A stretch of 51,318 nt of DNA, from contig CAKVCS010000001.1 of the NCBI GenBank assembly GCA_934725785.1, forward strand, positions 1-51,318, given 5' to 3'. Positions 30,901 through 51,318 of the stretch are shown here, in pieces. The DNA is from an uncultured Bacteroidales bacterium. Its GTDB lineage: Bacteria > Bacteroidota > Bacteroidia > Bacteroidales > Marinilabiliaceae. The translations under genes and the position numbers were made by a program. The notes below the pieces were generated by a model, which was not told the DNA's origin, searched no databases, and saw only the letters and a program-made list of their open reading frames with translations. Each line of letters begins with the position of its first letter. The stretch's first letter is position 1.

Positions 30901-31178
30901 AGGATGCGGAGAAGACGTTCTTGCTCACTTCGTTGACAGACAAACTTTTCCAGCTCGATGATTATGTAGAGATGCACAAAACTGACAACGAGTCTATTGT
31001 CCGTCTGCATATTACTCAAAATAGAGGAGCGGCAATAGCGAAACAAGTGGTTATCCCGAGCCATAACATCAAAGAGGTTGACCGGTTGGAGAAACGGATT
31101 GAAGATGTGCTCTCATCCGACAACGCCATCAATATGGCAGCTCTTATCAATATGATAAAAAGAAAGTGTAATGGATAA
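27957..31178 (+). CDS. large P-loop NTPase, 1073 aa (SspC-like candidate)
   Basis: Walker A GSYGTGKSS (28104-28130) and Walker B-like FLVFVVDEFGK. The start is GTG 27957 or ATG 27960, overlapping the upstream stop. Confidence 0.6.
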   Translation: MMTMKFSTSVNIERDCGKGFDYVVTANAKQAIGKIVNQFSVGIHSFCLIGSYGTGKSSFLLALEQCMLCSRPLPSQLMTNKGQFNGFTKFRFINIVGDYTPLGGLLDAHLRHEKFQGGNFFETLDGLYAECQKDDTFLVFVVDEFGKVLEYAAKNNPEKEMYFLQKFCEYVNDTDKNILFLATLHQAFSAYAKDLRLEQKQEWAKVKGRIADIVFKEPVEQLLNLAATKISRERGGARSVACRQLYELALTSRFINDSLKSDVALALYPMDIFAAYALTEANQRYGQNERSLFTFLESRGEGSISDFSPSGNTLFSLVNVYDYVRYNFYSSLTEVNADSSKWSAILTAIERIEGLPLAEEEVKTAVSIVKVIGMLNIFASSATKIDSDFLASYARLSLGIKDVLPLLGKLQRAQIVRFAKYKSKYILFEGTDVDIEFGLYIASLECKRSDDYVDKLRRFFPHHIRLANAHLYRTGTPRYFEYQISGEPVNKSPHGETDGIVNLIFTREDELPAIKARCLSVKGMAVVYCIFRNAPEVTDHVYNIEKLHWVRDYFVKDENDKVANNEIESLVEYEESLLSKSIFDSLYSDKVMWVFNGEPVDGIHSHKDLMKFISLVSDRVYYSTPVFRNELINRQRPSGTMSVARQNYLNALLENSDKPDIGFDKGKFPPEKSIYLTMLRSTGIHVPAGDSFTFCEPSEPSFKELWKCCMEFIKSARQKRRKISELVTLLSQAPFGMKKGFIDWWVPSFLIIKKNDFALYSGDAYVPFINKDVLGLLYRNPNDISVKSFSVEGVKQVFFQKYREAVNLGKSELNSNSFVETIRPILTFYRHLNPYAQNTRDIPTEARKFRDVISRATDPEVTFFDQLPEALGFRQDVMVRNPESVDSFVSVLQNAIRSLRGCYDDFVRSIERHILNALKVNENEFPAYKPIVDGRYKSVKAELMPNDVRTFHLRLTGSYDNYKEWVESISYAVLNKPLEKIKDAEKTFLLTSLTDKLFQLDDYVEMHKTDNESIVRLHITQNRGAAIAKQVVIPSHNIKEVDRLEKRIEDVLSSDNAINMAALINMIKRKCNG

Positions 31179-32277
31179 GGTAAGGCATGTGCTGGGAATC
31201 TCCGGAGGCAAGGACAGTGCGGCGTTGGCAATATATTTGAAAGACAAATATCCGGCGCTCGGCATAGACTTCTACACTTGTGACACGAAATGCGAATTGG
31301 CGGAAACAGAGCAACTCGTTGAGAGATTGCGTTCTTATTTGGGTAGGATTACGACGCTCCAAGCTGCCAAGGGAAGTCCGGAACCTACGCCTTTCGACCA
31401 TTTCCTGAAGATTAATGGCGGTTTTCTGCCTTCTGTTCAGCAGAGGTGGTGCACACAGAAAATGAAACTTGCGGAGTTCGAAAAGTATGTAGGCGACGAT
31501 CCCGTGGTCTCCTATGTCGGCATACGTGGCGATGAGGACCGAGATGGCTATGTCTCCTCAAAACCTAATATTCAGTCAGTTTTCCCGTTCCGCAGGAACA
31601 TATGGAGCATCGATGTCATAAACAAGGTCTTGAGCAACGATAACATTAGCAAGTTCAGCGAATGCTATCGCTCCGTTGCCGATACCCGGACTTTTGATGA
31701 GGCCAACAAGGTCCTCACCGCCAAGCTTACAAAGGATTTCTTCTACTCTAAGAAGCTCAATGCGTTGCTCGATATTGACATAAGGGCCTTTAATCACGCC
31801 ACTTTCTGCTTCCTTAAGGAATATACCGATTACCCCGTCGGCAGGTTGGATAATTTCCCTCTGCTTGACAATGAGGATGTCCTCTGTAAAGAGGACATTT
31901 TCAGGATATTGGAGGATAGCGGGGTCGGCGTCCCCGCCTATTACAAACTCATAGATTTTGAGGTGGACGGCAAGACGGGGAAATATTGCCGTAGCCGCTC
32001 AGGATGCTATTTCTGCTTTTTTCAGCAGAAGATTGAGTGGGTTTGGCTCTACGAGCAGCATCCCGACCTGTTTAAGAAAGCGATGGAATATGAAAAAGGC
32101 GGCTACTCTTGGATTCAAGACGAACCTCTTGAAAAACTGATCAGGCCTGAGCGTATACGCCAAATTAAGCTTGACCACATCAAGAAGACCGCGGTTCTCG
32201 AGTCAAAGAACAGAAGCAAGTTACTCATCGACCTGTTCGATGACGACGATGTCAACTGCGCCAATTGCTTTATTTAG
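31171..32277 (+). CDS. PP-loop ATP pyrophosphatase of the PAPS-reductase/DndC/SspD family
   Basis: SGGKDS PP-loop at 31201-31218, QQRWCTQKMK, and the Cys cluster CRSRSGCYFC. There is an 8-nt overlap with the upstream gene. Confidence 0.75.
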   Translation: MDKVRHVLGISGGKDSAALAIYLKDKYPALGIDFYTCDTKCELAETEQLVERLRSYLGRITTLQAAKGSPEPTPFDHFLKINGGFLPSVQQRWCTQKMKLAEFEKYVGDDPVVSYVGIRGDEDRDGYVSSKPNIQSVFPFRRNIWSIDVINKVLSNDNISKFSECYRSVADTRTFDEANKVLTAKLTKDFFYSKKLNALLDIDIRAFNHATFCFLKEYTDYPVGRLDNFPLLDNEDVLCKEDIFRILEDSGVGVPAYYKLIDFEVDGKTGKYCRSRSGCYFCFFQQKIEWVWLYEQHPDLFKKAMEYEKGGYSWIQDEPLEKLIRPERIRQIKLDHIKKTAVLESKNRSKLLIDLFDDDDVNCANCFI

Positions 32278-34554
32278 ATGCTGAAGGGGGTAGAGTTTCC
32301 ATCTCATCGACGTTTTAAGTCGCGGACGGAGTGGGAGCCAATAGGTTTCTTCTCCGACTGCCTCTGTAATGCGACCCAGTTCAACCTGATGCTCGGTTTC
32401 TTTTCCTCATCCGCCATAAACGTACTCGCCGACGGCTTCGCTTTCTTCATCTCCAATGGGGGCCGTATGAATCTGGTTATAAACGACATCCTAACTCAGC
32501 AAGACAAAAATGCCATAGCCGTCGGTGAGTATGCCAAGCCCATCCCTTTTTTTGACATACACGACGTCGAAAGGTTGAAAGCGACGCTGTCCGTGCGGGA
32601 CTCGCATTTTTTCGATTGCATAGCGTGGCTCATACGCAATAATCGTATTGACATAAAGATTGTCGCGCCAAAGGGCGGGGTGGGGATTTCTCACACCAAG
32701 ATGGGTGTTTTCTGTGATGGTGCGAACAAAGTGGGTTTTGACGGATCTTGTAATTTCTCGCGGTCGGCATTGGTGGACAATATCGAGAGTCTCACGGTGT
32801 GCTGCGATTGGGACGGTAACACTGCATCCGCAACCATAGACAGGCTGAGCGATGAGTTCGATCTTGTCTTCTCAGGCAATGATGATAGTGTTGTTTTTGT
32901 GCCCACCGATAAGGTTAAGACCAGTGTCACCGAGTTGTTTAAGGACAAGACTATAGACGAATTGCTTGAAGACGAATACAAATTGATTAAGCACGACTGT
33001 GCAAAATCTGCGCTGCCAGACTCGGTGATAAAGGCTCTGGCAAAAGCCAAGATGAAGATAGAGACCGCGATAGAGATGGGCAAATCAAAGTACGAAGTAC
33101 AGAACGTCGAGTCGATAGGCCTTGTTAAGCCTTGTTTCCCCTATGCGTCCGGCCCTCGCGAATACCAAAAGCAGGCATTCCTGAATTGGAAGAACAATAA
33201 GCAGAAAGGCTTGTTCGCGATGGCGACTGGCACGGGTAAAACCATTACTTCACTAAATTGCCTTCTCGAGATATACAAGAGGTTAGGTTATTACAAAGCT
33301 ATCATTCTTGTACCGACAATAGCGCTTCTTGACCAATGGGAAGCCGAATGCCGTAAGTTTAATTTCCGGACGGTTATAAAAGTTTGCTCCAAGGCCAGTG
33401 ATTGGAAATCGCAGGTAGCGCATATACGTCTGCTCGAAATGACGAACCCCGACAACGATTTATCATACGTTGTTATATCAACATATGCGTCATACGTAAG
33501 GTCTAATGTCTTTAACGAGCTGAACCATTTTACAAAAAACAAGCTCCTGTTGATAGCCGATGAGTGTCATAATATGGGTGGCGGGTTGATGGCTCAGCGC
33601 ATGCAAGACATTAAATATGTGCGCCGCATAGGTCTCTCGGCAACGCCCGATAGGCAGTCTGATGATGTCGGCAACCGCAAGCTTATGGATTTCTTCGGAT
33701 GTGACGGCGGTTACACTTTCGAGTACTCTATGGCCGATGCCATACAGAACGGTGCTTTGTGCCGTTACTACTATTATCCGCACGTAGTTCGACTGACAGA
33801 GAGTGAGATGTCCGACTACGTCGAGCTTTCAAAGGCGATAGTCAAACTCCTTGGGATCAAAGATGACACAGGTCAGGACCGCCTTAAAATGCTAATGCTG
33901 AAACGTAAACGCATAATACATAAGGCGGCCAACAAGCTGCCCATTTTTCAGCAAATAATCGAGCAAAGAATCAAGGAGAAAGGGAATCTGAAATACGCTT
34001 TGGTCTACGTGCCCGAGGGAGACAGGCCTGACAATTACGAGGCTGAAATATCAGATTTGGATGATTCGGGTTGCTCTGATCACGATACAGAGCATCTCAT
34101 TGACGATTTCACTCGGATTGTGCGCGATATTGATTCTCATATTACAGTCCGTAAGTTCACGTCTGTTTCTTCCGACAGAGACGCAATGCTGAAGGATTTC
34201 GCCTCCGGCGCAATCGATGTACTTGTATCAATGAAGTGTTTAGACGAGGGTGTTGACGTCCCGCGAAGTGAGTTGGCCATATTTTGCGCAAGTACGGGAA
34301 ACCCGCGGCAGTTCATACAGCGTCGCGGCCGTGTGCTAAGAACTCATAAAGATAAGCGCTTCGCCGTCATTCACGACCTCGTCGTTGTGCCCGACAATGT
34401 TTTCAATCATGATTGCTATGCTTATGAGAAAAATTTGGTTCAAGCCGAGTTGAGCCGAGTGCGTGATTTTGCGTTGCTCTCAGAGAACATTACCGATACG
34501 GTCAATGAATTGTCCGATGTGTTGCGGCGTTACAATTTGTCCATATTTGAATAG
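32278..34554 (+). CDS. PLD-family (HKD) nuclease domain fused to an SF2 DEAD/DEAH-type helicase
   Basis: HKD-like SHTKMGVFCDG...GSCNFSRSAL (HTK at 32692-32700). Helicase motif I is MATGTGKT (33220-33243), motif II is DECH (33559-33570), motif III is SATP, and motif VI is QRRGRVLR. Confidence 0.8.
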   Translation: MLKGVEFPSHRRFKSRTEWEPIGFFSDCLCNATQFNLMLGFFSSSAINVLADGFAFFISNGGRMNLVINDILTQQDKNAIAVGEYAKPIPFFDIHDVERLKATLSVRDSHFFDCIAWLIRNNRIDIKIVAPKGGVGISHTKMGVFCDGANKVGFDGSCNFSRSALVDNIESLTVCCDWDGNTASATIDRLSDEFDLVFSGNDDSVVFVPTDKVKTSVTELFKDKTIDELLEDEYKLIKHDCAKSALPDSVIKALAKAKMKIETAIEMGKSKYEVQNVESIGLVKPCFPYASGPREYQKQAFLNWKNNKQKGLFAMATGTGKTITSLNCLLEIYKRLGYYKAIILVPTIALLDQWEAECRKFNFRTVIKVCSKASDWKSQVAHIRLLEMTNPDNDLSYVVISTYASYVRSNVFNELNHFTKNKLLLIADECHNMGGGLMAQRMQDIKYVRRIGLSATPDRQSDDVGNRKLMDFFGCDGGYTFEYSMADAIQNGALCRYYYYPHVVRLTESEMSDYVELSKAIVKLLGIKDDTGQDRLKMLMLKRKRIIHKAANKLPIFQQIIEQRIKEKGNLKYALVYVPEGDRPDNYEAEISDLDDSGCSDHDTEHLIDDFTRIVRDIDSHITVRKFTSVSSDRDAMLKDFASGAIDVLVSMKCLDEGVDVPRSELAIFCASTGNPRQFIQRRGRVLRTHKDKRFAVIHDLVVVPDNVFNHDCYAYEKNLVQAELSRVRDFALLSENITDTVNELSDVLRRYNLSIFE

Positions 34555-34560
34555 TGCTAT

Positions 34561-34794
34561 ATGAGTGTGTATCAAACCAAAGATGATAGAATGTTGCAAG
34601 CCGTCATATCAGACGAGCGACTTGTCAACTACTATGGCTACAATCCTAATGACTTCACGTCTATGTCTGACGCCTTAAATTCCGATGTGGTTATAGTTCA
34701 GGCTATTGCCAAAATCATCGATAAATCTGGTCAAGGGTGCAGCGTCACGGAAATTTATAATGAGGTAAGAGATTTGCTAACGGCGAAGATATGA
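34561..34794 (+). CDS. 77-aa hypothetical protein
   Basis: Shares the island's AT-rich composition. Its stop overlaps the next start (ATGA at 34791-34794), which suggests translational coupling. I recognised no motif. Confidence 0.5.
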   Translation: MSVYQTKDDRMLQAVISDERLVNYYGYNPNDFTSMSDALNSDVVIVQAIAKIIDKSGQGCSVTEIYNEVRDLLTAKI

Positions 34795-36965
34795 TTTTAA
34801 AAGAGCTGAAAATAAAAAACTTCCGAAGCTACTATGGCTATAATACCCTTTTATTTTCCAAGGGGCTGACGCTTGTTATTGGCGACAATGGAGATGGGAA
34901 AACAACGTTGTTCGAGGCTTTGGAGTGGTTGTTCAATACAACTGGTGCCCCCCAAAAAGAATCAAACATCTCCGAAATGCGAAAGTCTGAGTTGGAAATT
35001 GGGGAAAGTGATGAGGTATCTGTCTCCTTAAGCTTTGAGCATGACGGACATAAAGAAGTTGAAAAGTCTTTTACTTTCGAGAGGGAGTTAGGCGGCAATA
35101 TTAGCCTTAGGGACTATAAGTTCGTCGGATATTGTATTGATGGCGTTGAACGTTCTCGTACCGAGGGTGCCAAGCTTTTGGACAGATGTTTTGAGCCTGT
35201 AATCCGCACATACTGTTTGTTCAAGGGAGAGAATAAGCTCAACGTTTTTGAAACCCCTGACGCCCTTAAGACATTGGTTGAGACATTCTCAGGTATAAAA
35301 GACTTTGATAAAAAGGTTGACCTTACAAAAAGTTTTGAGGAGAAAGCTGCCAATGTGGTCAGCAAAGCTCTGCAAAACGACAATAAAGTGTCGAAGCAGA
35401 CGAAAGAGCTTACCGATAGAAGAACAGCTCTTTTAAACGAGATACAAGAAATTAAAATTGAGTTAAAAGAAAAGAGAAAGTCAATCGACTGGTATTCTTC
35501 CAAATTGCAGGAATTGGAAAGTAATCAGGACCTCTCAGAGCGCTATCAGCACTTGAAGGTTCGCATAAAAGGATTAGAAGATAAACGTGCTGGTTTAGCC
35601 AAACATGTGAAATGCGACTACAATGCAAAATTATTGGACGAATCATGGATCCTGCGTTCCTTTCCATCTGTCATGAGCGACTTCTCTGCAAAAGTCTCTG
35701 CGTTGAGCAAGGCGAAGAGGAGACTTGATAAGCAAGAGACAGAAAGGCGTGCTATGGCCGATGGCAAGCGTGAGGCTTACACGCAAATTCAGAAACTTGT
35801 AAATGATACAGTCCCACTGCCTTGGAACTTGCCAGACGAACAAACGATGAAGGAGATGATTGACGATGAGGTTTGTAAGGTTTGCGGACGGCCTGCGCCT
35901 AAAGGCTCTGAACCATATGAGTTTATGCGCCATAAACTGCAGGACTATCTTGACCACGTAAAGGCAGAGGCGAATAAGAAATCAAATGATTCTCAAGAGG
36001 AAGAGAAACCTCTGTTCGTCAATTCATTCATTGATGAGTTGCATTCTTTACAAATCAAATTTAGTGGAGACGAGGAGATTGCGGTCGCAAACACAGCAAG
36101 GAAAATTAGTGAGGAGTTAGAGTTCATAAACGCAAGAAAACTTCAGTATAATGAAGTCGATACGCAGCTGAACGATTTGGAAACAGAGGCAAACAACATG
36201 ATATTGCAGTCAGGATTAAGTGATGAACTGTTGTCGAAGAATTTTTCGGATTTAATAGGTTTTTTTGACTCTAAGAGTCATGCGGAAAGGCGCATGACGG
36301 AGTTGGAGGCAGAACTTAAGTCCAAGGAGGAGGAAGTCGAGCGAGTTAAGGAAGCATTGTCACAACTTGAGCCAGAAAGTACTATGACCCAGGTATTGCA
36401 ACGTGTTCATCAAGCTTTTGAAAATATTAGCAAGGCCTTCGAAAATGCCAAAACTCAGAACATTAACAAGTTCCTGCAGATGCTCGAGTCCAAATCAAAT
36501 GAGTATCTTCAAAAATTGAATGAAGGAGACTTCTATGGGGTAATCCATATCTGGAAGTCTATGGGAGACTCTGCGCATATAGAGCTTTGCAGTAAAAATG
36601 GAACACGCATTGAGAACCCCAATGGTGCGCTTAAGACGACAATGTACATGTCTGTCCTCTTCGCGATTTCTGAAATTACAACATTGAAAAGGGAGAAGGA
36701 CTATCCTCTAATCTTTGATGCGCCTACCTCTTCTTTCGGCAGTTTTAATAAGGAGCGTTTCTACAATGTCATCGACTCTATCGACAAGCAGTGCGTTATA
36801 TTCACAAAGGACTTGCTCAATGTAGATAAAGAGACAGGACTGAAAGAGGTTGACTGCCAGACAATCGATAAACTCTCTTGCCCCGTCCTGCGCATCGAGA
36901 AGGTTCTGCCGTTCAACGATAAGGATTTGTCTACTGTTCGAACTGTCATAAAGATAATAAGGTAA
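34791..36965 (+). CDS. SMC/Rad50/DndD-like ABC ATPase with a central CxxC hook
   Basis: N-terminal LKIKNFRSY...VIGDNGDGKTT (Walker A at 34881-34907), long coiled-coil arms, CKVCGRP at residues 362-368 of 724 (35874-35894), and a C-terminal Walker B YPLIFDAPTSSF. Confidence 0.75.
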   Translation: MILKELKIKNFRSYYGYNTLLFSKGLTLVIGDNGDGKTTLFEALEWLFNTTGAPQKESNISEMRKSELEIGESDEVSVSLSFEHDGHKEVEKSFTFERELGGNISLRDYKFVGYCIDGVERSRTEGAKLLDRCFEPVIRTYCLFKGENKLNVFETPDALKTLVETFSGIKDFDKKVDLTKSFEEKAANVVSKALQNDNKVSKQTKELTDRRTALLNEIQEIKIELKEKRKSIDWYSSKLQELESNQDLSERYQHLKVRIKGLEDKRAGLAKHVKCDYNAKLLDESWILRSFPSVMSDFSAKVSALSKAKRRLDKQETERRAMADGKREAYTQIQKLVNDTVPLPWNLPDEQTMKEMIDDEVCKVCGRPAPKGSEPYEFMRHKLQDYLDHVKAEANKKSNDSQEEEKPLFVNSFIDELHSLQIKFSGDEEIAVANTARKISEELEFINARKLQYNEVDTQLNDLETEANNMILQSGLSDELLSKNFSDLIGFFDSKSHAERRMTELEAELKSKEEEVERVKEALSQLEPESTMTQVLQRVHQAFENISKAFENAKTQNINKFLQMLESKSNEYLQKLNEGDFYGVIHIWKSMGDSAHIELCSKNGTRIENPNGALKTTMYMSVLFAISEITTLKREKDYPLIFDAPTSSFGSFNKERFYNVIDSIDKQCVIFTKDLLNVDKETGLKEVDCQTIDKLSCPVLRIEKVLPFNDKDLSTVRTVIKIIR

Positions 36966-36970
36966 CCAAT

Positions 36971-37489
36971 ATGTCCGATAGTTTATTCGATTTGTGGGCC
37001 AGGAGAGACCCGCAGTGGGAGAAAAGGTATGAGGATAACATAGTCAAGAAATTCTGCGACTATGGCCGAGGGGCCACCTCTTTGCGCGAGGATAGGGGTA
37101 AGCTCTTTGGCTCTGGATATGAAATATACATTGTTGCATTTTTCATTGGCTTGTATAACAACCAGAGGCGACAGCTTGTCGATGATGCAAAAAAGCGTAA
37201 GAGTTTTGGACACCCAATTCAAAATTGGGGGAATATAACTGCTTCAGTTGCGAATGGCAGGAAACCTTACCCCAAACTGCGTAAGTTTATTTTCATAGCT
37301 CTCATAGCTCGTGCCGACATTGATTTCATCGCACTTGAAGAAGGCGATATTAAGCCAGCCAAGGCTGTCGATATGTTAGTACAGCTGATGGAGGAATACG
37401 CCAATTGGGGCTTCCATTTTATTGAGGATAAGATGGAGGACGACGCAAATTATTTTTTCGTGAAACTGCTTTCCTCGAAGTCTTTTTAG
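36971..37489 (+). CDS. 172-aa hypothetical protein (last island gene)
   Basis: Island-like composition, 5 nt after the preceding stop. Notable segments are GYEIYIVAFFIGLY and MEEYANWGFHF. I could not assign a family with confidence. Confidence 0.5.
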   Translation: MSDSLFDLWARRDPQWEKRYEDNIVKKFCDYGRGATSLREDRGKLFGSGYEIYIVAFFIGLYNNQRRQLVDDAKKRKSFGHPIQNWGNITASVANGRKPYPKLRKFIFIALIARADIDFIALEEGDIKPAKAVDMLVQLMEEYANWGFHFIEDKMEDDANYFFVKLLSSKSF

Positions 37490-43241: not shown

Positions 43242-43955
43242 AAATGAATGTTTGTAATTATGTGAATTTTATAGGTTTGCTGAGTGCTTGTTTGCCGAAA
43301 GGAGGCTTCGCGCGGTTCTGTCCGCGCTTTCCCTTCACAAAAATAAGATAAGGCGTCGAATGCCGACCCCCAATTAAAGAAAAATTTCTTTATTTAAAGT
43401 CGGTCAAATTTAGCCCTCCCTCCAGGCTCCTGCTTCACGCCCTCCGTCCTGCGCCCCGCCCCCCCCCTGCTCCCGGACCAATCCCCGCCCCGCGCTTGCC
43501 GAGCCTCCTGTTCCCTCTTTTGCCGCCCCCCCCTGTCCGTCGCGGCCATCTCATGCCAGCCTCCCCCTCCTTAGTCTTTGGTTGCGTTCACCGCGTCCGT
43601 GGCTGGATGCCGCGCCGGAATCACATAAGCCATTGTCAGCTAATTTATTTTGCGATTTCAACAAAAATATTTTTCAAAACATCGCCAAAATAATTTGTCA
43701 TTTCAATTTATCAACCTACCTTTGCATTGTCAACGGAACAAGATGACGACCTCGGGTCAAAGTCTTTCGCACTCCCATAACTGACTGACGGATACAGCTG
43801 GCCGCCTCTCTTACGCGGTGCGATGTAGGCTCTTCTCCCTCGATGCCCGTTTTGCTCTTTTGGCAAACCAATTCAATAATTCGAACAAAACATCAAATCA
43901 GCGCGGGGCGGTCTGTTTCCTCCGCCCAAAAGCGCTCTCAAACACATCAAATGAA

Positions 43956-44561
43956 ATGGCAGTTTATAAGCAAGGTGTTCTCGGTCCGTTCAGTGGTAAA
44001 GTCGGAACTGTTGTTGGAAGTTCTTGGCGCGGTATTGCATATATCCGCTCGCTGGCTACGAAGGTTGGAAATCCGCGTACGGCGGGGCAGGTCGCCGCAA
44101 GGTCTCGGCTCGCTCTCGTGGCGGGAAGGCTCAAGCACTTCGCTACCGCAATCAGGGCCGGATTCGTCAACGCCGGGGCTCTGAGCCCTTGGTCGGCGGC
44201 CATCAAGGCCAACCTCGCCCATGTCAAGGATTCAGGCTCGGGCCTCACGGTCGATATGAAGTCGCTCCGCCTCTCCGACGGTTCGGGCGAGTTCGCCGTC
44301 ACGCCGGCTAAGACCTCTGGCAGCGTGGATTTCTCATGGAAGGCCCCCAAGGCGTCCGACGCCTTCTACGGGGGTAAGCTCTATGCGGCGGCCTATAATG
44401 TCGCCAATGGCAAGGCCGCTAACTTCGTGGCCGACCTCACGGCCTCTTCCGCGTCCATGAGCCTCGCGTCCCTCCTCTCGGGCGAGGACGATGATGTCCA
44501 TGTCTACTACTTCGTTGCAACCGCCGCGGCAAGCACGCCTACCGCGCATGTCGCCGACTGA
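43956..44561 (+). CDS. DUF6266-like hypothetical protein
   Basis: MAVYKQGVLGPFSGKVGTVVGSSWRGIAYIRSL matches my recollection of the DUF6266 N-terminus. The start is set at ATG 43956. Confidence 0.5.
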   Translation: MAVYKQGVLGPFSGKVGTVVGSSWRGIAYIRSLATKVGNPRTAGQVAARSRLALVAGRLKHFATAIRAGFVNAGALSPWSAAIKANLAHVKDSGSGLTVDMKSLRLSDGSGEFAVTPAKTSGSVDFSWKAPKASDAFYGGKLYAAAYNVANGKAANFVADLTASSASMSLASLLSGEDDDVHVYYFVATAAASTPTAHVAD

Positions 44562-44678
44562 TAGCCGGCCTGGCTGCGATACCACGGGGCGGGGCGCTCC
44601 TTCCGCCCCCGCCCCTTTCTCCCCTCTCTGCCACCAATTCAAACGCATTTTTTCTCACCATCAAATACGTTCACTCTT

Positions 44679-45239
44679 ATGCTTTCTTTCAAGCTTTACC
44701 GCAAGGAGAACACGGCCGACTTCTGCCGCGGCCGCCTCTACGCTTCTGTCAACGACGATTGCCCGCCCTCCGGCGGCTCGTCCGCGCCGCTCGGCGAGTG
44801 CCTTCTCTGCGACACCATCGAGCCGCCTGTGCGCCGCCCTGCGGACTTTGTCCGAGGCAAGACGGCCGTACCCGCCGGCACCTACGACCTCGCCCTCACC
44901 CGCAGCCCGAAGTTCGGGCGCCCGCTCCCCGTTCTCATCGATGTGCCGGGCATGACGGGTGTCCGCATACACCGCGGCAATTCTGTGGCCGACACCCGCG
45001 GCTGCATCCTCCCGGGGCGATACGTCGGCCGGGGCAGGGTGGTGGACAGCACTCCCCGCGAACTTGACATCGTTCGCATGATGATGGATAGCGCCGATGG
45101 CGCAGAGATTGAGATTGTCGACGATTTCGCCGCGCCCTCTGTCGAGGCCGACCGCTCGCCAATCTTCTCCTCGTGGCCGCTCGCAACCCTCGTGGCGCGT
45201 TCCGTCTGGGATCGCCTCCGGCTCTCAGCCGCGGCATGA
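44679..45239 (+). CDS. DUF5675-like protein with a YkuD-like H...GC motif
   Basis: KTAVPAGTYDLALTRSPKFGRPLPVLIDVPGMTGVRIHRGNSVADTRGCILPG. Confidence 0.55.
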   Translation: MLSFKLYRKENTADFCRGRLYASVNDDCPPSGGSSAPLGECLLCDTIEPPVRRPADFVRGKTAVPAGTYDLALTRSPKFGRPLPVLIDVPGMTGVRIHRGNSVADTRGCILPGRYVGRGRVVDSTPRELDIVRMMMDSADGAEIEIVDDFAAPSVEADRSPIFSSWPLATLVARSVWDRLRLSAAA

Positions 45240-45411: not shown

Positions 45412-46989
45412 CTACCGGACTATCACTTTCGCCCGTCCGCCCGCTGAGTCCACGACGTATATGCCCGTAGGCAGCTGTCGCCCGTCCGGCATGCGCCTCC
45501 CGCTGAGGTCATACACTGCGCGCAGGCCCTCTGCCTCAACCTCGCCGTTGACGACTCTCGCGACGCTGCGACCCGAATTAACGTTCTTGGCCGCCGTCGT
45601 GAATTCCGACAGGGGTCTTATGTCGCTGAAGTAGCTGCCCCAAGTGCTGCTCTTGTAAGCCTTGACGGCGGCGTCAGGCACGTACAGCGGGCACAAGTTT
45701 TCGGGGAAGGCCTCGCTTTCGTCGATTTCGGGTACTGTCTCCGACTCCGAAATCACGTATTTCAGGCCCTCACAAAGCCTGAATGCGCCATAGTCGATAT
45801 GTGTGACATTTCCCGGTATGGTTATGTTTGCCAAACTGCGGCAACTCTCGAATGCGACGGAGCTGATATATGTCACGTTTTGAGGTATGTTAATGCTTCG
45901 TAGTGCGCTGCAACCGTCAAAAGCACTGTTGCCTATGTTAGCCACTGCTTCAGGGATGGATATTTCCGTCAGGCTGTTGCAATACTCAAATGCGCTCACT
46001 CCAATGCTTTTGATGCTTTCGGGTATTTTTATAGCCTCCAAATCACGACACGTATAGAATGCGTAGTCCCCAATTTTCGTCACCCCGTCCTGCAGTTCTG
46101 CGTAAGTGTAATGTAAGTGTTCCCACGGGTGGTGCGAGACTATTGGCGAGTCCCACTCATATTCAGTGCTGATGCTCACCTTATCGTCTTCACATTTCCA
46201 ACCGTTGCCCACGGTCGCCTTGACTGCGGTGCCGATTGCGCCGTCCGAGATTGACGGGAAGATGTGTTTCCAGTCAGACTCTTCGTATGCCTCCAGCGAT
46301 CCCGATGGAACGTAGAGTGCGCAAATGTTGCAAGGGAATGCATCCAGTCCAATATTTGCGGGAGAACCTCCTGCGCACTCGACGTACTCTAAGCTGTCGC
46401 AGTATAAAAAGGCTTGCTCCCTTATCTCCGTGACGCTCTCAGGGATTCTTACGTGTTTGAGAGACCAGCAGGAATAGAAAGCGCCGTTTTCTATGGTCGT
46501 GACTCCGTCAGGAACAGTAATATCCGAAATTGCGCAAGTGTTGAAAACGCTTCTGCGTAAAGTTGTCACACCTTTGGGGATGTTCACAGTGGTGAAATTA
46601 AAGTTGTATGCGAATGCAGATCCTCCAATCTCAGTGACGCTCTCTGGTAAAGTAATTCCCGTGAGGCTCCAGCAAGACTGGAATGAACTATAGCCTATTT
46701 GCTCAACCCCGTCAGGTATCGATACCTTCGTTAGTTTTGTGCAACTTGCGAAGGCTTCATTTCCGACCCTTGTCACGCCGGGTTCTATCACCACGCTCGT
46801 CACTGCCTCGCGGTCAGCGTCCCAAGGGTAGTCCGCCTTTGCGTCCGCCCATTCGTACTCTTGCGTCACCGTCAGGACGCCCTCGTCCGTCAGCGTCCAC
46901 CCCGTGCCGCTGTTGTCTGCTCTCGTCTCGCCGCCCCACGCCAGCGCGGCCGCCGCGGCGATGATGATTGTGGATAATGTCTTCTTCAT
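45412..46989 (-). CDS. BspA-type leucine-rich-repeat surface protein with a T9SS C-terminal sorting domain
   Basis: Signal peptide MKKTLSTIIIAAAAALAWG. Repeated units follow the pattern IP.SVT.IG..AF..C..L..I.IP. The C-terminal AVYDLSGRRM...LPTGIYVVDSAGGRAKVIVR is a Por/T9SS CTD pattern. Confidence 0.8.
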   Translation of the reverse strand: MKKTLSTIIIAAAAALAWGGETRADNSGTGWTLTDEGVLTVTQEYEWADAKADYPWDADREAVTSVVIEPGVTRVGNEAFASCTKLTKVSIPDGVEQIGYSSFQSCWSLTGITLPESVTEIGGSAFAYNFNFTTVNIPKGVTTLRRSVFNTCAISDITVPDGVTTIENGAFYSCWSLKHVRIPESVTEIREQAFLYCDSLEYVECAGGSPANIGLDAFPCNICALYVPSGSLEAYEESDWKHIFPSISDGAIGTAVKATVGNGWKCEDDKVSISTEYEWDSPIVSHHPWEHLHYTYAELQDGVTKIGDYAFYTCRDLEAIKIPESIKSIGVSAFEYCNSLTEISIPEAVANIGNSAFDGCSALRSINIPQNVTYISSVAFESCRSLANITIPGNVTHIDYGAFRLCEGLKYVISESETVPEIDESEAFPENLCPLYVPDAAVKAYKSSTWGSYFSDIRPLSEFTTAAKNVNSGRSVARVVNGEVEAEGLRAVYDLSGRRMPDGRQLPTGIYVVDSAGGRAKVIVR

Positions 46990-47282: not shown

Positions 47283-47305
47283 GGGTGTTTTTTTTTGTAA
47301 ATTTG
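47283..47305 (+). promoter_or_regulatory. Bacteroides-type promoter for the J-like/GrpE-like/Hsp70 operon
   Basis: GGGTGTTTTTTTTTGTAAATTTG, with an exact TAnnTTTG at 47298-47305 about 46 nt before the ATG. Confidence 0.5.
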
Positions 47306-47350
47306 TGTTGACGACAGCAAGAAGATATCGCAAGTTCAAACAGGGTCTTG

Positions 47351-49057
47351 ATGAATATACTGCAAAACAACCCCTACCGCACTCTCGGAGTTTACTCGAA
47401 CTCCCATATAAAGGAGAGGCTGGCAAACAGAAACCGTATGAAGGCGTTTCTGAAGGTGGGCAAACCAGTCGCTTTTCCTTTAGACCTTCCGCAATATATG
47501 GCGGCCGTCGACCGCACGGCTGCCTCGGTCGAGGAGGCTGAGGCTGAATTGGCTTTGCCTAAAGACCAGGTGTTCTACGCACAGTTCTGGTTCGTTAAGC
47601 TCTCGCCTCTCGACGAGGTCGCTTTCAACAACCTTCTCTCAGGGGACATGGGCAAGGCCGAGGAGATATGGCAGAAGAGACCCTCCGCCTCCTCTCTGCA
47701 GAACAGCATAGTGTGCGCGCTTATCCGCAAGGACTATGCTTGCGCTGTCCGTTGTGCGGAGGCGTTATATGGCGATAGTCGGAAGGTCGGCCAGCTTGTC
47801 TCTGCCGTCCTCGGAGATGCCGGGTGCTCGTTCCCGCTGTCGGGCTTGCAGAACGCTTTTGTTGATGCCTTGAGCGGCGTCGTGGGGGCTGAGAGTCTCA
47901 TTCCCATTATCGAGAACAGCGATTTGCGGGTCTCCGTTGTTCAATCGGCCACAGGGCCGCTGTTCAAGCAGGTCGAGTCGGCTATCGCGGTCGCGAGGAT
48001 GGCTGTGGATAAAGGCTATGCCGGCCTGAGGGCTGGCAGGGCGTTGATGAATGAGACGAGGGATCCTGTCAGTAAGCTCAAGGAACTTGTGCCTGCCAAT
48101 GACATTCACTTCCAGGCGGTCATGGACAAGTTGTCGCAGGAACTCTCGCATTGCGCCATCCTCTATCACAATCACACCGATGATGACGACGCCCCGCATA
48201 AGGCCCTGCCTCTCCTCAGATACGCCCTATCCGTCGCCATTAGTGCCATGGAGAGGGAAAAATGCAAGAAAGACATCCTGACACTCGAGAGGATGGAGCG
48301 CAAAAGTGCTGTGCGAGGACAAATCGAAAGAATCGAGGGCGCTGTCCGCAATCTAAAGTTAGACAGATTTGGGGTCCGCTTTGGTGGTGGGGAGGCCGAG
48401 CTTCAAGAGGTTACGCAGATTGTCAAGGGGTGTGCCTCCGACCTCGCGGACATAAAGGCGGAGCTGGGCGGCTCTTCCGAGCAGTATGCCATGTTCTCTT
48501 CGCTGCTCGCCGCCGCCGCTGTCAACGCCGTGGTCAGGATTCTTAACCTCCAGCAAGACCAGCATGCGGGCGACGTGACGACACTCCGTCACGTCTTCTC
48601 CTCCGGAATCTCCACTATGGAGGAGATTAATGGCATCCATATGGACGCCAAGGTGCGCAAATATTTCGATGACAATTTTTCAGTCATAAAGTCTATATAC
48701 GAACGCCTGAGTCCGATTAACATATTAAGTCGGTATCTTCCGGATTATAAGAAGCTTGAGGAGGCGGCTAAAGCCGAAGCTGAATACCGGAGGAAGATAA
48801 GTGGTGAGTCAAGTGGCGGAGCCTGCTACGTGGCCACCATGGCCTATGGGGACTATGACCATCCGCAGGTCGTCATCCTCCGCCATTTCCGCGACCGCTA
48901 TCTCTCGCACAGAGACTGGGGCAGGCGGTTCATAAATACCTACTACAGATATTCGCCAAGGCTTGTCGAGAAGCTTAAGGGCCACTCTGTTGTAAACAGG
49001 CTCATAAGGGGTATCCTCGATGGCTTCATTTCCTGCATAAGAAACAAATATGAGTAA
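47351..49057 (+). CDS. 568-aa hypothetical protein with a degenerate J-domain-like N-terminus and a CxVATxAYG...LRxFRD C-terminal module
   Basis: NPYRTLGVYSNSHIKERLANRNRMKAFLK resembles J-domain helices I-II, but no HPD follows. The C-terminal GGACYVATMAYGDYDHPQVVILRHFRDRYL is a motif I recall at the C-termini of diverse membrane-associated proteins. The ATG is at 47351; the track lists TTG 47348. Confidence 0.55.
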   Translation: MNILQNNPYRTLGVYSNSHIKERLANRNRMKAFLKVGKPVAFPLDLPQYMAAVDRTAASVEEAEAELALPKDQVFYAQFWFVKLSPLDEVAFNNLLSGDMGKAEEIWQKRPSASSLQNSIVCALIRKDYACAVRCAEALYGDSRKVGQLVSAVLGDAGCSFPLSGLQNAFVDALSGVVGAESLIPIIENSDLRVSVVQSATGPLFKQVESAIAVARMAVDKGYAGLRAGRALMNETRDPVSKLKELVPANDIHFQAVMDKLSQELSHCAILYHNHTDDDDAPHKALPLLRYALSVAISAMEREKCKKDILTLERMERKSAVRGQIERIEGAVRNLKLDRFGVRFGGGEAELQEVTQIVKGCASDLADIKAELGGSSEQYAMFSSLLAAAAVNAVVRILNLQQDQHAGDVTTLRHVFSSGISTMEEINGIHMDAKVRKYFDDNFSVIKSIYERLSPINILSRYLPDYKKLEEAAKAEAEYRRKISGESSGGACYVATMAYGDYDHPQVVILRHFRDRYLSHRDWGRRFINTYYRYSPRLVEKLKGHSVVNRLIRGILDGFISCIRNKYE

Positions 49058-49986
49058 TGATGAAGATAATATTCACGCTTGTAGCGCTGGCCGCTTTTCC
49101 CTTTATGCCGGTGCGCGCGCAAGAGCCGTCAGACACGGTCGAGCTCGGTGAGCTTAAGGAGCAGTTCGAAGCTCTGCAGAGCCTGCAGAAACGCCAAACA
49201 GAGGAGATTCGCCAACTAACGGAGAAATATAAGGCTGTCGAACATAACCTATCGCTCGTTGAGAGTGTGCGCGATAGACAGATAAAAAGAATCGACAGTC
49301 TGGCCTCTGTCTGCGATACGCTGACCCAAAAACAATCCGAAGACAGTAAGAGCGTCAACGGTAGAATAGACAACGTCAATAGCGATGTCCGCTCCAACAA
49401 CCAGGCGTTGCGTAGTCACACCCTCTGGGGCGGGGTGTTGGCTGTCGTCATGTTGGCGGCCGTGGGCGTAGCCTCCTTTCTCCTGTCCCGGCGCATAAAG
49501 TCTGGCTCCTCATCTATCGATGAGGTCCGCAAGGCGCAAGAAGCCCTCAAGCGCACGCAGGCCCTCATGCAGGAGGAGTCTGTCAAGCTCGACGACAAGA
49601 TGTTGGCCATCTTAGACAAGAGGCTGTCAAGCTCTGCGCAAAGCCAAGGCGACGGCAAGCCCGACCATTCGCTGGCACTCAAGGTGGCCGACGAGATTGT
49701 GAGGATTGAGCTCAACATGTCGCATATGGACCCCTCCGTCAAGGGCTTCAAGCAATTGTCTAAAGCAGTCGAGCGAATCAAGAACAATTTCCAGGCCAAT
49801 GGCTACGAGATAGTCGACATGCTCGGCAAGCCCTATGACGATGGCATGAAGGTCACCGCTAACTTCGTGGCGGACGATAGCCTCGAGGCCGGTGCGCAAA
49901 TCATAACTGGCGTCACGAAGCCGCAAATCAATTTCAACGGGCAGATGATCCAGGCTGCTCAGATCACTGTAAGCCAAAACATCTAA
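49057..49986 (+). CDS. signal-peptide/TM-anchored coiled-coil protein with a GrpE-like C-terminal domain
   Basis: Signal MMKIIFTLVALAAFPFMPVRAQ, TM LWGGVLAVVMLAAVGVASFLL, and a C-terminal ANGYEIVDMLGKPYDDGMKVTANFVADDSLEAGAQIITGVTKPQINFNGQMIQAAQITV that follows the GrpE beta-domain pattern. Its start overlaps the upstream stop. Confidence 0.6.
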   Translation: MMKIIFTLVALAAFPFMPVRAQEPSDTVELGELKEQFEALQSLQKRQTEEIRQLTEKYKAVEHNLSLVESVRDRQIKRIDSLASVCDTLTQKQSEDSKSVNGRIDNVNSDVRSNNQALRSHTLWGGVLAVVMLAAVGVASFLLSRRIKSGSSSIDEVRKAQEALKRTQALMQEESVKLDDKMLAILDKRLSSSAQSQGDGKPDHSLALKVADEIVRIELNMSHMDPSVKGFKQLSKAVERIKNNFQANGYEIVDMLGKPYDDGMKVTANFVADDSLEAGAQIITGVTKPQINFNGQMIQAAQITVSQNI

Positions 49987-49989
49987 TCA

Positions 49990-51318
49990 ATGACAAGAAA
50001 TAAAATTGACTACGGCATAGATCTCGGCACGACCAATTCAGCAATATGCCGGATGGAAAAGGGCGAGCCTTGCGTAATCAAGACCGATGTACTCAAAGAT
50101 ACCATGCCGTCATGCGTCTCGGTTAACAAGAAGGGTTCCTTGAAGGCGGGGGACGGCGCTTTCAACACAATGAAGCAGGATAAGCGCCGCGCGACGATGT
50201 CTTGGCATCGCGGCGCTTCGAATACCTACGTCGAGTTCAAGCGCACGATGGCTACGGACACAAGGTATGCTTGCGAGAACCTTGGCAGGGACTTCTCTTC
50301 CGAGGAGCTGTCTTCCGAGGTGCTTAAGACCCTTAAGTCCTTCGTCACCGACGAGGCCATTAACTCCGTCGTCATAACCGTCCCCGCCAAGTTCACGGTC
50401 AACCAGAAGACGGCTACCATCGAGGCCGCCAAGATGGCGGGCTTCAAGCGCTGCGAGCTGCTTCAGGAGCCTATCGCCGCCTCTATGGCGTATGGCGTTT
50501 CCGCAGATGAGAAGAATGGCCTCTGGATGGTGTTCGACTTCGGTGGCGGCACGTTCGATGCAGCTCTCCTTAAAGTTGAGGATGGGATAATGCAAGTTTT
50601 TGACACAGAGGGCGACAATTACCTCGGAGGCAAGAACCTCGACTATGCCATTGTCGACAGCATCCTTATCCCATACCTCCAAGAGAATTACGCCATCGGA
50701 GGCTATCTTGCTGACCCAGAGAAGAAGGATGTCCTCCGCGACGCTATGAAGACTTATGCAGAGGAGGCCAAGAACCAGCTCTCTTTCAAAGCCAGCGAGG
50801 ATGTCATCTCAAACCTCGGTGACCTCGGTCAGGATGAGGAGGGCGAGGAGATCGAGCTCGACCTGACGCTCTGGCAGGAGCAGGTGTTCGATGTCATGCG
50901 ACCCTATTTCCAGAAGGCGGTCGACATATGCAAGAATCTCGTCAGCCGAAACAATATCGACCCTTCTCAAATCACTAAACTTATTCTTGTTGGCGGGCCA
51001 ACCCATAGCCCGCTCATCCGCCAGATGCTAAGGGAGCAGCTCACGCCCAACGTGGACACGAGCATCGACCCGATGACGGCGGTAGCCTCGGGGGCTGCGC
51101 TTTTCGCCTCCACGCTCGATGCCGAGGTCTCTGACGGTGATATCGAGGTCGGCACGGTCAAGCTCGATGTCAACTACGAGTCTACGACGGTCGAGACGAC
51201 AGAATTCGTGACGGTGAGGCTCGCCGCCGGCTCTTTTGTCGACGAGGTGCTTGTCGAGTGCGTCAGGGCGGACAAGGCGTGGGCGAGCGGCAAGGTCGAG
51301 ATAAACTCAAGGGGCGAC
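49990..51318 (+). CDS. Hsp70-family ATPase with a non-canonical C-terminal region; 3' end outside the window
   Basis: My own translation is open for 443 codons to the window end. It contains IDYGIDLGTTNSAI, VITVPAKF, LLQEPIAASMAYG, VFDFGGGTFDAALL and LILVGGPTHSP. No DnaK-like linker/SBD motif (DVLLLDVTPLSLG) follows the NBD. Confidence 0.85.
   Translation, partial: MTRNKIDYGIDLGTTNSAICRMEKGEPCVIKTDVLKDTMPSCVSVNKKGSLKAGDGAFNTMKQDKRRATMSWHRGASNTYVEFKRTMATDTRYACENLGRDFSSEELSSEVLKTLKSFVTDEAINSVVITVPAKFTVNQKTATIEAAKMAGFKRCELLQEPIAASMAYGVSADEKNGLWMVFDFGGGTFDAALLKVEDGIMQVFDTEGDNYLGGKNLDYAIVDSILIPYLQENYAIGGYLADPEKKDVLRDAMKTYAEEAKNQLSFKASEDVISNLGDLGQDEEGEEIELDLTLWQEQVFDVMRPYFQKAVDICKNLVSRNNIDPSQITKLILVGGPTHSPLIRQMLREQLTPNVDTSIDPMTAVASGAALFASTLDAEVSDGDIEVGTVKLDVNYESTTVETTEFVTVRLAAGSFVDEVLVECVRADKAWASGKVEINSRGD

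Follow-up and report, generated by a model that had tools for sequence, protein, structure and literature searches.

An Hsp70 gene cluster at the end of the contig

The last genes of a 51,318-nucleotide (nt) contig from an uncultured Bacteroidales bacterium of the family Marinilabiliaceae (CAKVCS010000001.1, the whole of which is called the window here) encode an Hsp70-family ATPase together with two putative partner proteins. The three genes, named A, B and C, follow one another on the plus strand:

47351..49057 (+), gene A: ATG at 47351, stop codon TAA at 49055-49057, 568 amino acids (aa); from the open reading frame (ORF)
49057..49986 (+), gene B: ATG at 49057, 309 aa, membrane-anchored GrpE-like protein; from the ORF, an AlphaFold2 model and Foldseek
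49990..51318 (+), gene C: Hsp70-family ATPase, first 443 codons, cut at the end of the window

The original prediction, made from the letters of the sequence alone, described three linked plus-strand genes with an overlap of stop and start at 49057 and a gap of 3 nt before the third, and the sequence bears this out: the stop codon of A and the ATG of B share 1 nt (TAATG), and 3 nt separate B from C. Spacing is also tight in about 80 related loci, where the median gap is 5.5 nt between A and B and 12 nt between B and C. The preservation of such short distances in so many loci indicates that the A-B-C arrangement is an operon and not the result of chance. The guanine-plus-cytosine (GC) content of the module is 55%, against 61% in the adjacent frd genes.

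The assemblies of this same sequence, three including the window, all break inside gene C, at codons 443, 443 and 430. Searched as exact strings, the last 59 and the last 30 nt were not found in JGI metagenomes, blastn returned no locus more than 75% identical, and neither a repeat, a near-identical relative nor an extending contig was found for the break at the window end.

An Hsp70 with a rewritten J-docking site

Gene C contains the nucleotide-binding domain (NBD) motifs DLGTTNS (aa 11), DFGGGTFD (aa 183) and VGGPT (aa 334), all three of them as originally predicted, and matches the Pfam HSP70 family (PF00012) with an E-value of 5e-65 over profile positions 3-402 of 599. Its identity to DnaK from Escherichia coli is 29%. 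The fragment scores 234 bits and a full-length homologue 242 bits, against an 822-bit cutoff for the DnaK equivalog (NCBIfam TIGR02350), and the score also lies far under the HscA equivalog cutoff of NCBIfam. Two regions can be told apart in the part of C that is present:

49990..51144 (+), NBD, aa 1-385: catalytic residues intact, J-docking residues replaced
51145..51318 (+), degenerate linker-like motif VGTVKLDV (aa 387-394, 51148-51171) and the start of a beta-rich post-NBD region; from alignment to DnaK 388-394

For comparison, 74-75 members of the C family were aligned with the real E. coli DnaK, HscA and HscC and with one Bacteroidota DnaK. The equivalents of D8, K70, E171, D194, T199 and D201 are kept in 69-74 of 74 members and in the window protein, and C is, as judged from these residues, a catalytically intact ATPase. 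The eight residues that contact J domains (Y145, D148, R167, N170, T173, E217, D326 and Q378) do not differ among the four reference Hsp70s, and every one of them is substituted in 75 out of 75 module Hsp70s. The replacements are Y145K, D148V, R167E (75/75), N170Q (75/75), T173I/V, E217Q/K, D326R/K and Q378Y/F. In the canonical pair, the histidine-proline-aspartate (HPD) motif of DnaJ makes contact through D35, which forms hydrogen bonds with R167 and Q378, and through H33, which binds the L391 backbone (PMC8215388). C is changed at all three of these HPD-partner positions, and what the alignment describes is a family-wide and specific remodelling of the HPD docking site.

It had also been predicted that C lacks both the interdomain linker of DnaK and the motifs of its substrate-binding domain (SBD). 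The absence of the linker was overstated, because the degenerate motif VGTVKLDV is present; it aligns with DVLLLDV of DnaK following the pattern T-(V/I)-K-L-(D/E)-(V/I), with L391 changed to K in around half of the members. The unusual C-terminus that had been predicted for C is supported. Full-length homologues of 826-857 aa continue after the NBD with a beta-rich region of about 230 aa and a helical region of about 210 aa, and in them the Pfam HSP70 match ends at about position 400 of 599, with no Pfam match to an SBD. A truncated Hsp70 paralogue of 480 aa, consisting of the NBD and the first beta subdomain, is found at locus L031 (10844-14804) in tandem just before the full-length gene, to which it is 75% identical. 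As this paralogue ends there, a subdomain boundary can be placed near aa 480, which suggests that the preceding part of C is a separable unit.

The gene caller starts several C homologues at an internal Met, dropping 60 N-terminal residues that include DLGTTNS (for instance at L005, 9821-10000), and database lengths for these proteins are consequently too short. This is the case for P0048, which has 770 aa in the database and 830 aa in reality.

A membrane-anchored protein with a GrpE fold

The protein encoded by gene B had been predicted to combine a signal peptide, an external coiled coil, one transmembrane (TM) segment and a GrpE-like beta-domain, a layout that was recovered by AlphaFold2 with Foldseek, by hhalign and by hydropathy. 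Its parts are the following:

49057..49422 (+), signal-like N-terminus (aa 1-21) and predicted periplasmic coiled coil (about aa 26-122); from hydropathy and model
49423..49488 (+), TM segment, aa 123-144, LWGGVLAVVMLAAVGVASFLLS; from hydropathy
49495..49983 (+), putative cytoplasmic GrpE-like module made of a stalk helix, two further helices and a beta-domain; from model, Foldseek and hhalign

The B family counts 1033 representatives at 50% clustering, and an alignment of 83 diverse relatives was used to build an AlphaFold2 model with a mean predicted local distance difference test (pLDDT) score of 89. The model consists of one long helix (aa 26-193), two shorter helices (aa 205-223 and 231-247) and a small beta-domain (aa 250-307). 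When this model is compared with the PDB by Foldseek, the 13 best matches are all GrpE, with E-values from 1.2e-5 to 2e-2 and nearly all with a probability of 0.99-1.00, and the next match has an E-value of 0.1. The GrpE structures matched include human GrpEL1, E. coli GrpE (1DKG) and those of Thermus, Geobacillus and Mycobacterium tuberculosis. A direct hhalign comparison of the B family with the real E. coli GrpE aligns aa 242-306 of B with the beta-domain of GrpE (131-193), at a pairwise E-value of 0.005 and a probability of 6.8%, and the two share the motifs G-x-E-x-I and nG..iraA.vtV.

GrpE was not matched by B in Pfam (PF01025) or NCBIfam at E-values up to 1, where only noise of coiled-coil and FtsL type appeared (including a weak FtsL match in NCBIfam, E-value 2e-5), and the family profile recovered coiled coils only, and no GrpE, from PDB sequences. 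The check by profile search that had been suggested for all three proteins returned Hsp70 for C but no GrpE for B, for which the GrpE fold was recovered by the model. By its predicted structure, B has a GrpE fold that sequence profiles alone miss.

The signal-like segment of B reads MMKIIFTLVALAAFPFMPVRA/QE, and a hydrophobic N-terminal segment is present by hydropathy in 80 of the 83 aligned members. An internal TM segment is found in 82 of the 83, and the family mean on the Kyte-Doolittle scale exceeds 1.6 at aa 127-138. Following the positive-inside rule, the RR pair directly after the TM segment would place the coiled coil in the periplasm and the GrpE module in the cytoplasm, with a single TM segment in between. 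It is at the GrpE-like module, from 49495 on, that DNA similarity to other loci begins.

The homologue of B in a cassette from Haliscomenobacter (L096, NC_015512.1 8539-16064) is named 'septum formation initiator' in RefSeq, probably a misannotation driven by the TM segment and the coiled coil. The structural assignment corrects an annotation that currently reads 'hypothetical' or 'septum formation initiator'. To our knowledge, no membrane-spanning GrpE-like protein has been described earlier.

A candidate adaptor without the HPD motif

Gene A has two recognisable regions, one at each end of the protein:

47351..47605 (+), conserved N-terminal domain of about 85 aa, NPYRxLGV...KAFLKVGK...A.A.L.LP.DQ..YAQFWF
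48824..49024 (+), CFI-box-CTERM domain, aa 492-558 (GGACYVATMAYGDYDHPQV...), NCBIfam NF041770, E-value 9.6e-24, 83 bits against a cutoff of 40

The protein starts with MNILQNNPYRTLGVYSNSHIKERLANRNRMKAFLKVGK and has no HPD, as the original prediction had stated. A total of 1133 homologues of A were found, and in about 80 loci the gene lies directly upstream of B. The N-terminal 85 aa or so are the best-conserved part of the family and are present in every paralogue. At the position of HPD, the window protein and all of the roughly 90 homologues examined have the sequence KVGK and a loop of about 20 residues, and no HPD was found in any of them. The AlphaFold2 model of A (pLDDT 87) is entirely helical, and Foldseek with the whole model gives weak matches to helical-repeat and TPR proteins, the best with an E-value of 0.003 and including the TPR region of the co-chaperone P58IPK.

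The C-termini of the A family vary. Among 91 of them, 59 end with a low-complexity linker, an (N/W)GC motif and a TM segment, 11 carry a CFI-box (GGC(Y/F)(I/V)AT), the group to which the window protein belongs, and 21 are of other kinds. In most A proteins the Cys of (N/W)GC stands directly before the C-terminal TM segment (for example at L050, 8192-9838, and L081, 8374-9972), and a Cys is similarly placed in the CFI-box (48824-48850 in the window) and in the GGCFG tails of accessory proteins encoded in other loci. A diverges faster than C, with 47-49% identity to its nearest relatives against 85% for C, and it is often tandem-duplicated, in up to four copies.

Whether A is derived from a J-domain protein, as originally proposed, was approached from several sides. 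The profile of the N-terminal domain, searched against 177,635 PDB sequences, gives five matches, of which the best two are J domains (2cug, E-value 0.19; DNAJC3, E-value 0.89), both aligned at J-domain helices I-II. One of 31 members matches Pfam DnaJ, with an E-value of 0.007. The helices of the model lie at residues 8-11, 20-35, 57-66 and 70-77; after a short first helix comes one of 16 residues, which a long loop separates from the last two, an order that is compatible in the model with that of a J domain with a longer loop. On the other side, A belongs to no Pfam family, and its full-length PDB profile search returned noise only. When jackhmmer was started from the real E. coli J domain, A was not picked up, and none of the fetched loci yielded a J-domain protein. 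As neither hhalign nor jackhmmer makes a connection to J domains, the J-like nature of A is rated as plausible, and somewhat favoured, but not as demonstrated. The claim is partly supported, by the faint helix I-II matches, the compatible model helices and the remodelled site on C, and it finds no backing in Pfam, the full-length PDB profile search or the whole-model Foldseek search.

The competing explanation is that A is not a J-like co-chaperone but a tail-anchored TPR-like scaffold or the client itself, while C cycles with B alone or is triggered by substrate or by the product of gene D described below. This is a minority reading, which we nevertheless take seriously. It is in line with the lack of a significant J-domain match in any profile or fold search, with the resemblance of the helical body to TPR and other helical repeats, and with the loss from every member of HPD, the motif that defines J-domain function. 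What speaks for a J-like adaptor instead is that the two best PDB profile matches of the N-terminal domain are both J domains at helices I-II, that one member does reach Pfam DnaJ, and that the predicted helices agree in length and order with a J domain whose loop has been extended. In addition, it is specifically the HPD-contact residues that C has lost, and no part of A is better conserved than the N-terminal domain, which every paralogue retains.

A motif, TAAATTTG, was read from the sequence at 47298-47305, 45 nt upstream of the ATG of gene A; we take it to fit the Bacteroidetes -7 promoter motif TAnnTTTG.

A five-gene cassette in related loci

A scan with the B profile over one genome per GTDB species matched 162 species among about 185,000 representatives, and 80 loci were kept. 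Almost all of them come from Bacteroidota genomes, with a few metagenome-assembled genomes labelled otherwise. The hosts include Prevotella, Bacteroides, Muribaculaceae, Odoribacter, Alistipes, Nonlabens, Chryseobacterium, Christiangramia, Lunatimonas and Fluviicola, and named species that carry the module include Prevotella intermedia, Segatella salivae and Bacteroides pyogenes. The neighbourhood survey proposed in the original prediction, carried out with hidden Markov model searches of all ORFs, found a conserved gene order in about 80 loci and allowed the C-terminus of C and the downstream genes to be read from homologues. In essentially every sufficiently long locus the order is A(n)-B-C-D-E, where C has 826-857 aa, D about 580-640 aa and E about 155-180 aa. 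The C homologues that are 85% identical to the window protein are followed by a Pkinase-AAA fusion and a small ORF; they are called at 750-770 aa and have a full length of about 830 aa. The output parts that had been predicted to lie beyond the window correspond in homologous loci to these kinase-like/AAA+ and TerB-like genes.

The AAA+ domain of D has the Walker A motif (GPPGCGKT), the Walker B motif (DE), the pore-loop aromatic residue, sensor-1 and the arginines of the second region of homology in 63-64 of 64 members. It is nearest to CDC48, FtsH and PAN, with matches to the CDC48 and FtsH families at E-values of 1e-57 and 1e-54 that stay below the equivalog cutoffs. On the strength of these motifs, D is a substrate-threading AAA+ motor of the classical clade. 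Its kinase domain retains the beta3 Lys, DFG and APE, together with a degenerate Gly-rich loop. The position of the HRD Asp is occupied by Glu in 50 of 64 members and by Asp in 6 of 64, and the catalytic-loop Lys is changed to Thr in 58 of 64, a pattern of residues that probably marks a pseudokinase or an atypical kinase.

The small protein E matches Pfam TerB (PF05099) in 32 of 35 members, with a best E-value of 3.5e-7, and its best PDB matches are the TerB-fold proteins 2ou3 and 2h5n. A TerB-like domain is also carried by DjlA, a membrane J-protein of E. coli.

D and E are separated by a median gap of 12 nt. The distance between C and D is bimodal, with 30 nt or less in 33 of 67 loci and more than 300 nt in 23 of 67. 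The long gaps, in about 23 of the 67 loci, are a variable slot for unrelated extra genes, as in L009 (13431-14323), L066 (13154-14137), L060 (13191-15332) and L020 (13224-13775). The proteins encoded in this slot are often tail-anchored or secreted, and several end with GGCFG and a TM segment. In L015, L020 and L023 the slot holds a secreted protein made of GNTTTTH(K/R)(D/N)RYGNxTGTSTTGxTDxF repeats, and in L060 and L062 it holds TPR/BamD-like proteins.

A minimal variant was found at L073, L075 (4170-10874) and L082 (3537-11438). It consists of three to four short tandem A paralogues, B and C, with no D or E, and its B protein of 171 aa has the TM segment and the GrpE-like domain without the periplasmic coiled coil. 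The variant is directly followed by purM, prfA and pyrF. Its existence indicates that A-B-C is the core of the system.

Genomic context and distribution

The two nearest flanking genes on each side of the cassettes encode 137 proteins that match 164 Pfam families, none of which occurs more than 4 times (integrase 3-4, Fic 4). Flanks as unrelated as these indicate that the cassette is an autonomous unit placed in variable contexts. A minority of neighbours match defence families, namely SoFic, the DRT-associated DUF1848, a type I restriction endonuclease, AbiD, ZorD/DpdE-like proteins and several PDC candidates, and at L007 MmeI, AbiJ and ResIII genes lie upstream of the cassette.

The clearest context is that of the complete plasmid pHALHY02 from Haliscomenobacter hydrossis, where the cassette lies between SIR2/WD40-repeat genes and the BREX genes brxL-pglZ, a position that suggests a role in conflict or defence. 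RefSeq lists the same five genes of this plasmid in the same order (WP_013769011-015) as a CFI-box-CTERM domain-containing protein, a septum formation initiator, an Hsp70 family protein, an AAA family ATPase and a TerB family tellurite resistance protein. These generic names were given gene by gene, the five genes were not recognised as a system, and the likeness of B to GrpE was missed. A phage origin of the module was considered and rejected: the viral collections are essentially free of the cassette, 2.9 million viral contigs giving 4 matches and the GenBank phages giving none.

Comparison with known chaperone systems

Reviews recognise three types of prokaryotic Hsp70, namely DnaK, HscA and HscC, and describe other DnaK-derived paralogues as functionally unexplored (PMC8215388, PMC13580251). 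Literature searches for the combination of parts found here, or for 'CFI-box', returned no description of the cassette.

With the DnaK-DnaJ-GrpE system, and with ClpB as its partner, the cassette shares an intact Hsp70 ATPase, a GrpE-fold factor, possibly a J-derived adaptor and, in most loci, an AAA+ threading motor to which substrates could be passed, as they are to ClpB. As for the differences, C has only 29-31% identity to DnaK, exceeds it in length by about 200 aa and has no recognisable SBD sequence; all of its HPD-docking residues are replaced, and its adaptor lacks HPD. B differs from GrpE by its signal-like N-terminus, its predicted periplasmic coiled coil and its TM segment, and in D, in contrast to ClpB, one classical AAA domain is joined to a degenerate kinase. 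The cassette is, moreover, accessory and patchily distributed, unlike the DnaK triad.

The closest characterised analogue of the cassette is HscC from E. coli, a specialised Hsp70 paralogue encoded beside its own adaptors, DjlB and DjlC, in the cluster hscC-djlC-ybeU-ybeT-djlB. DjlB and DjlC combine an N-terminal J domain, of which the N-terminal domain of A is a putative counterpart, with a C-terminal TM tail like that of most A proteins, the tail of DjlC having been observed in this analysis. HscC is not stimulated by DnaJ, CbpA or HscB, and together with DjlB and DjlC it has been argued to act on membrane proteins (PMC8215388). However, HscC keeps R167, N170, Q378 and the other J-contact residues, and DjlC has an HPD-type motif (HPE). 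HscC also works with no GrpE-type factor, which it is thought not to need, has 556 aa, and is not associated with AAA+ or TerB partners.

Dedicated Hsp70 proteins are also found in predicted conflict systems. Those centred on GAP1-N2 GTPases recruit Hsp70, GrpE and DnaJ-FNIII (Kaur et al. 2020, PMC7159879), and set a precedent for finding an Hsp70 with its own GrpE and a J-domain protein in a predicted conflict neighbourhood. They differ from it in their paired GTPases, their distribution mainly in Actinobacteria and Firmicutes, and their recognisable GrpE and J domains, whereas the cassette has no GTPase, is almost entirely from Bacteroidota, and joins divergent co-chaperones with kinase-like/AAA+ and TerB genes. 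The CnuD and CnuCD proteins of type III CoCoNuT systems (PMC11090510) likewise place Hsp70-like NBD and SBD units inside defence operons; the ATPase motifs of CnuD are degenerate and the protein is fused or linked to McrBC GTPase/nuclease components, whereas the ATPase of the cassette is intact and McrBC is absent. Both the GAP1-N2 and the CoCoNuT systems were rejected as the identity of the cassette, being of other composition and lineage.

Proposed mechanism and alternative explanations

The evidence tips, by a modest measure, towards the cassette being a private (orthogonal) Hsp70 machine on the cytoplasmic face of the inner membrane, most likely serving as a conflict or anti-phage module. 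In this model C would be an active Hsp70 ATPase that housekeeping DnaJ proteins should not drive, given that the surface on which HPD and the J domain dock has been rewritten. A would be its dedicated adaptor, the conserved HPD-less N-terminal domain docking on the altered site of C and triggering it. The Lys of KVGK could face Glu167 and form a charge-swapped version of the D35-R167 contact, and the variable helical body of A would select the client or signal. B would serve at the membrane as the exchange factor for resetting C, and through its periplasmic coiled coil the condition of the envelope could influence exchange. By analogy with DnaK-ClpB, C may in most genomes hand the captured protein to the AAA+ ring of D, which together with E would unfold or extract it, while E and the kinase-like domain of D would have a regulatory function. 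The analysis itself establishes the order and conservation of the genes, the GrpE fold of B, the intact catalytic residues and rewritten J-site of C, the motifs kept and lost in D, the TerB homology of E and the coexistence with a canonical DnaK. Partner binding, the topology and any sensing role of B, the client and the biological role are all parts that we infer.

Should the model of the machine be right, a conflict or defence role is favoured, at about even odds, the main alternative being a specialised remodelling of membrane proteins. The original prediction had named conflict or secretion-associated systems as candidates; the first is plausible in view of the BREX/SIR2 plasmid island, but no evidence was found for a role in secretion.

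Several observations weigh against the model. D and E are seen in homologous loci only, the contig itself ending inside C, and a few loci lack both. PADLOC-DB v2.0 gives no system or model match for A, B, C or E and only domain-level matches for D; there, A has no match, B matches coiled-coil-type proteins only, C reaches 13 bits, D matches IetA, PD-T4-6 and MAD6, and E matches only BnzA (E-value 0.003). The cassette encodes no nuclease, toxin or other obvious effector, its flanking genes are mostly ordinary, and defence genes are a minority among its neighbours. A J domain is not recognised in A by Pfam, the full-length PDB profile search or the whole-model Foldseek search, and an hhalign comparison of its N-terminus with approximate J-domain sequences gave a probability below 1%, a value that is not usable as evidence. 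Similarly, the post-NBD region of C finds no Hsp70 SBD in a PDB profile search, and hhalign of this tail with an approximate DnaK SBD sequence gave a probability of 1.2%, which is not usable as evidence either. Finally, substitutions of the R167/D326 type could reflect an altered allostery between NBD and SBD instead of a new docking partner, because R167 and D326 also belong to the NBD-SBD interdomain clamp (PMC8215388).

A different explanation keeps the machine and changes its purpose, giving it a housekeeping-like role in which it would serve particular proteins of the inner membrane (tail-anchored ones) or of the envelope in their biogenesis, quality control or extraction. We hold this to be somewhat unlikely. 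Every part other than the ATPase points to the membrane, as B has a TM segment, most A proteins are tail-anchored, and many proteins of the C-D slot are tail-anchored or secreted. No toxin or nuclease effector is present, the flanking genes are mostly ordinary, and E. coli DjlA, with its TerB-like domain, offers a parallel. A further parallel is the proposal made for HscC with DjlB and DjlC (PMC8215388). However, the distribution is patchy, with 162 matches among about 185,000 species representatives, the contexts are varied, the GC content is atypical, A evolves fast and is tandem-duplicated, and the cassette is found in the BREX/SIR2 island of a plasmid and beside defence genes at other loci. 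Patchiness, varied context, a fast-evolving A and defence neighbours are traits of accessory conflict genes rather than of core proteostasis.

It is improbable that C, instead of chaperoning clients itself, has an Hsp110-like role in which it would assist the housekeeping DnaK through its NBD, as co-chaperone or as exchange factor, and in which B could also act on DnaK. Such a role has been proposed for bacterial DnaK-derived paralogues (PMC13580251), and the length of C (about 830 aa) and its degenerate linker do recall Hsp110; in addition, no SBD is detectable by sequence. Nevertheless, C retains every catalytic residue, the minimal A-B-C variant exists as a unit, and C is always encoded with a GrpE-like factor of its own, which an exchange factor would not need.

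That the module might be the housekeeping dnaK-grpE-dnaJ set of a divergent organism, as the side-by-side position of three genes, for an Hsp70, a GrpE-like protein and perhaps a J-like one, could suggest, can be set aside: C reaches 234 bits where 822 are called for and is 29% identical to DnaK, its J-docking residues are all changed, B is membrane-anchored, and a canonical DnaK coexists with the module at L036. The latter gene, 7 kb upstream of the module, encodes 638 aa that are 60% identical to E. coli DnaK with RRIINEPTAA and DVLLLDV intact, whereas the Hsp70 of the module at the same locus is 31% identical to it. The presence of both shows that the module is not the housekeeping set, in agreement with the original prediction and with the 29-31% identity of C to DnaK. 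Prevotella intermedia, Segatella salivae and Bacteroides pyogenes, which carry the module, should have an ordinary dnaK as well.

Returning to the private Hsp70 machine, what would be new in it are the membrane-spanning GrpE homologue, the orthogonal adaptor interface and the additional partners, a machine of Hsp70, nucleotide-exchange factor and adaptor being in itself of a known kind. A bolder and tentative proposal, which we consider possible but doubtful, is that the cassette represents a fourth class of bacterial Hsp70 besides DnaK, HscA and HscC. It would be defined by an orthogonal, HPD-less, tail-anchored adaptor derived from J proteins and docking on a charge-reversed site (R167E), an inner-membrane GrpE homologue, a pseudokinase-AAA+ unfoldase and TerB, and would act as a chaperone-based immune or conflict system that senses envelope or invader cues at the membrane and unfolds its target at the expense of ATP.

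The cassette offers a concrete and testable case of an Hsp70 insulated from the housekeeping J-protein network. Its naturally rewired interface, in which the Hsp70 carries R167E, N170Q and Q378Y and the putative partner has KVGK where HPD would stand, bears on the evolution of specificity between Hsp70 proteins and their co-chaperones. If it were a true defence or conflict module, it would add a chaperone/unfoldase mechanism to the bacterial immune repertoire, in hosts among which are Prevotella, Bacteroides and Muribaculaceae, Bacteroidota that are abundant in the gut and the mouth.

Other features of the window

Directly upstream of the module, and divergently transcribed from it, is the following gene:

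45412-46989 (-), BspA-type leucine-rich-repeat (LRR) protein, 525 aa, Pfam LRR_5, E-value 1.6e-80

Between this gene and the frd operon lies a pair of genes encoding DUF6266 and DUF5675 proteins (43818-45239, plus strand), where the local GC content rises to 66%. A defence island of phosphorothioate type (27103-37489, plus strand) with a low GC content, 45% against about 60% elsewhere, lies about 10 kb upstream of the module, with an AraC-type gene and frdCAB in between. It encodes SspB (DUF4007), SspC, SspD, a PbeA-like PLD-SNF2 helicase, a PbeC/LmuB-like SMC-type ATPase and a 172-aa ORF.

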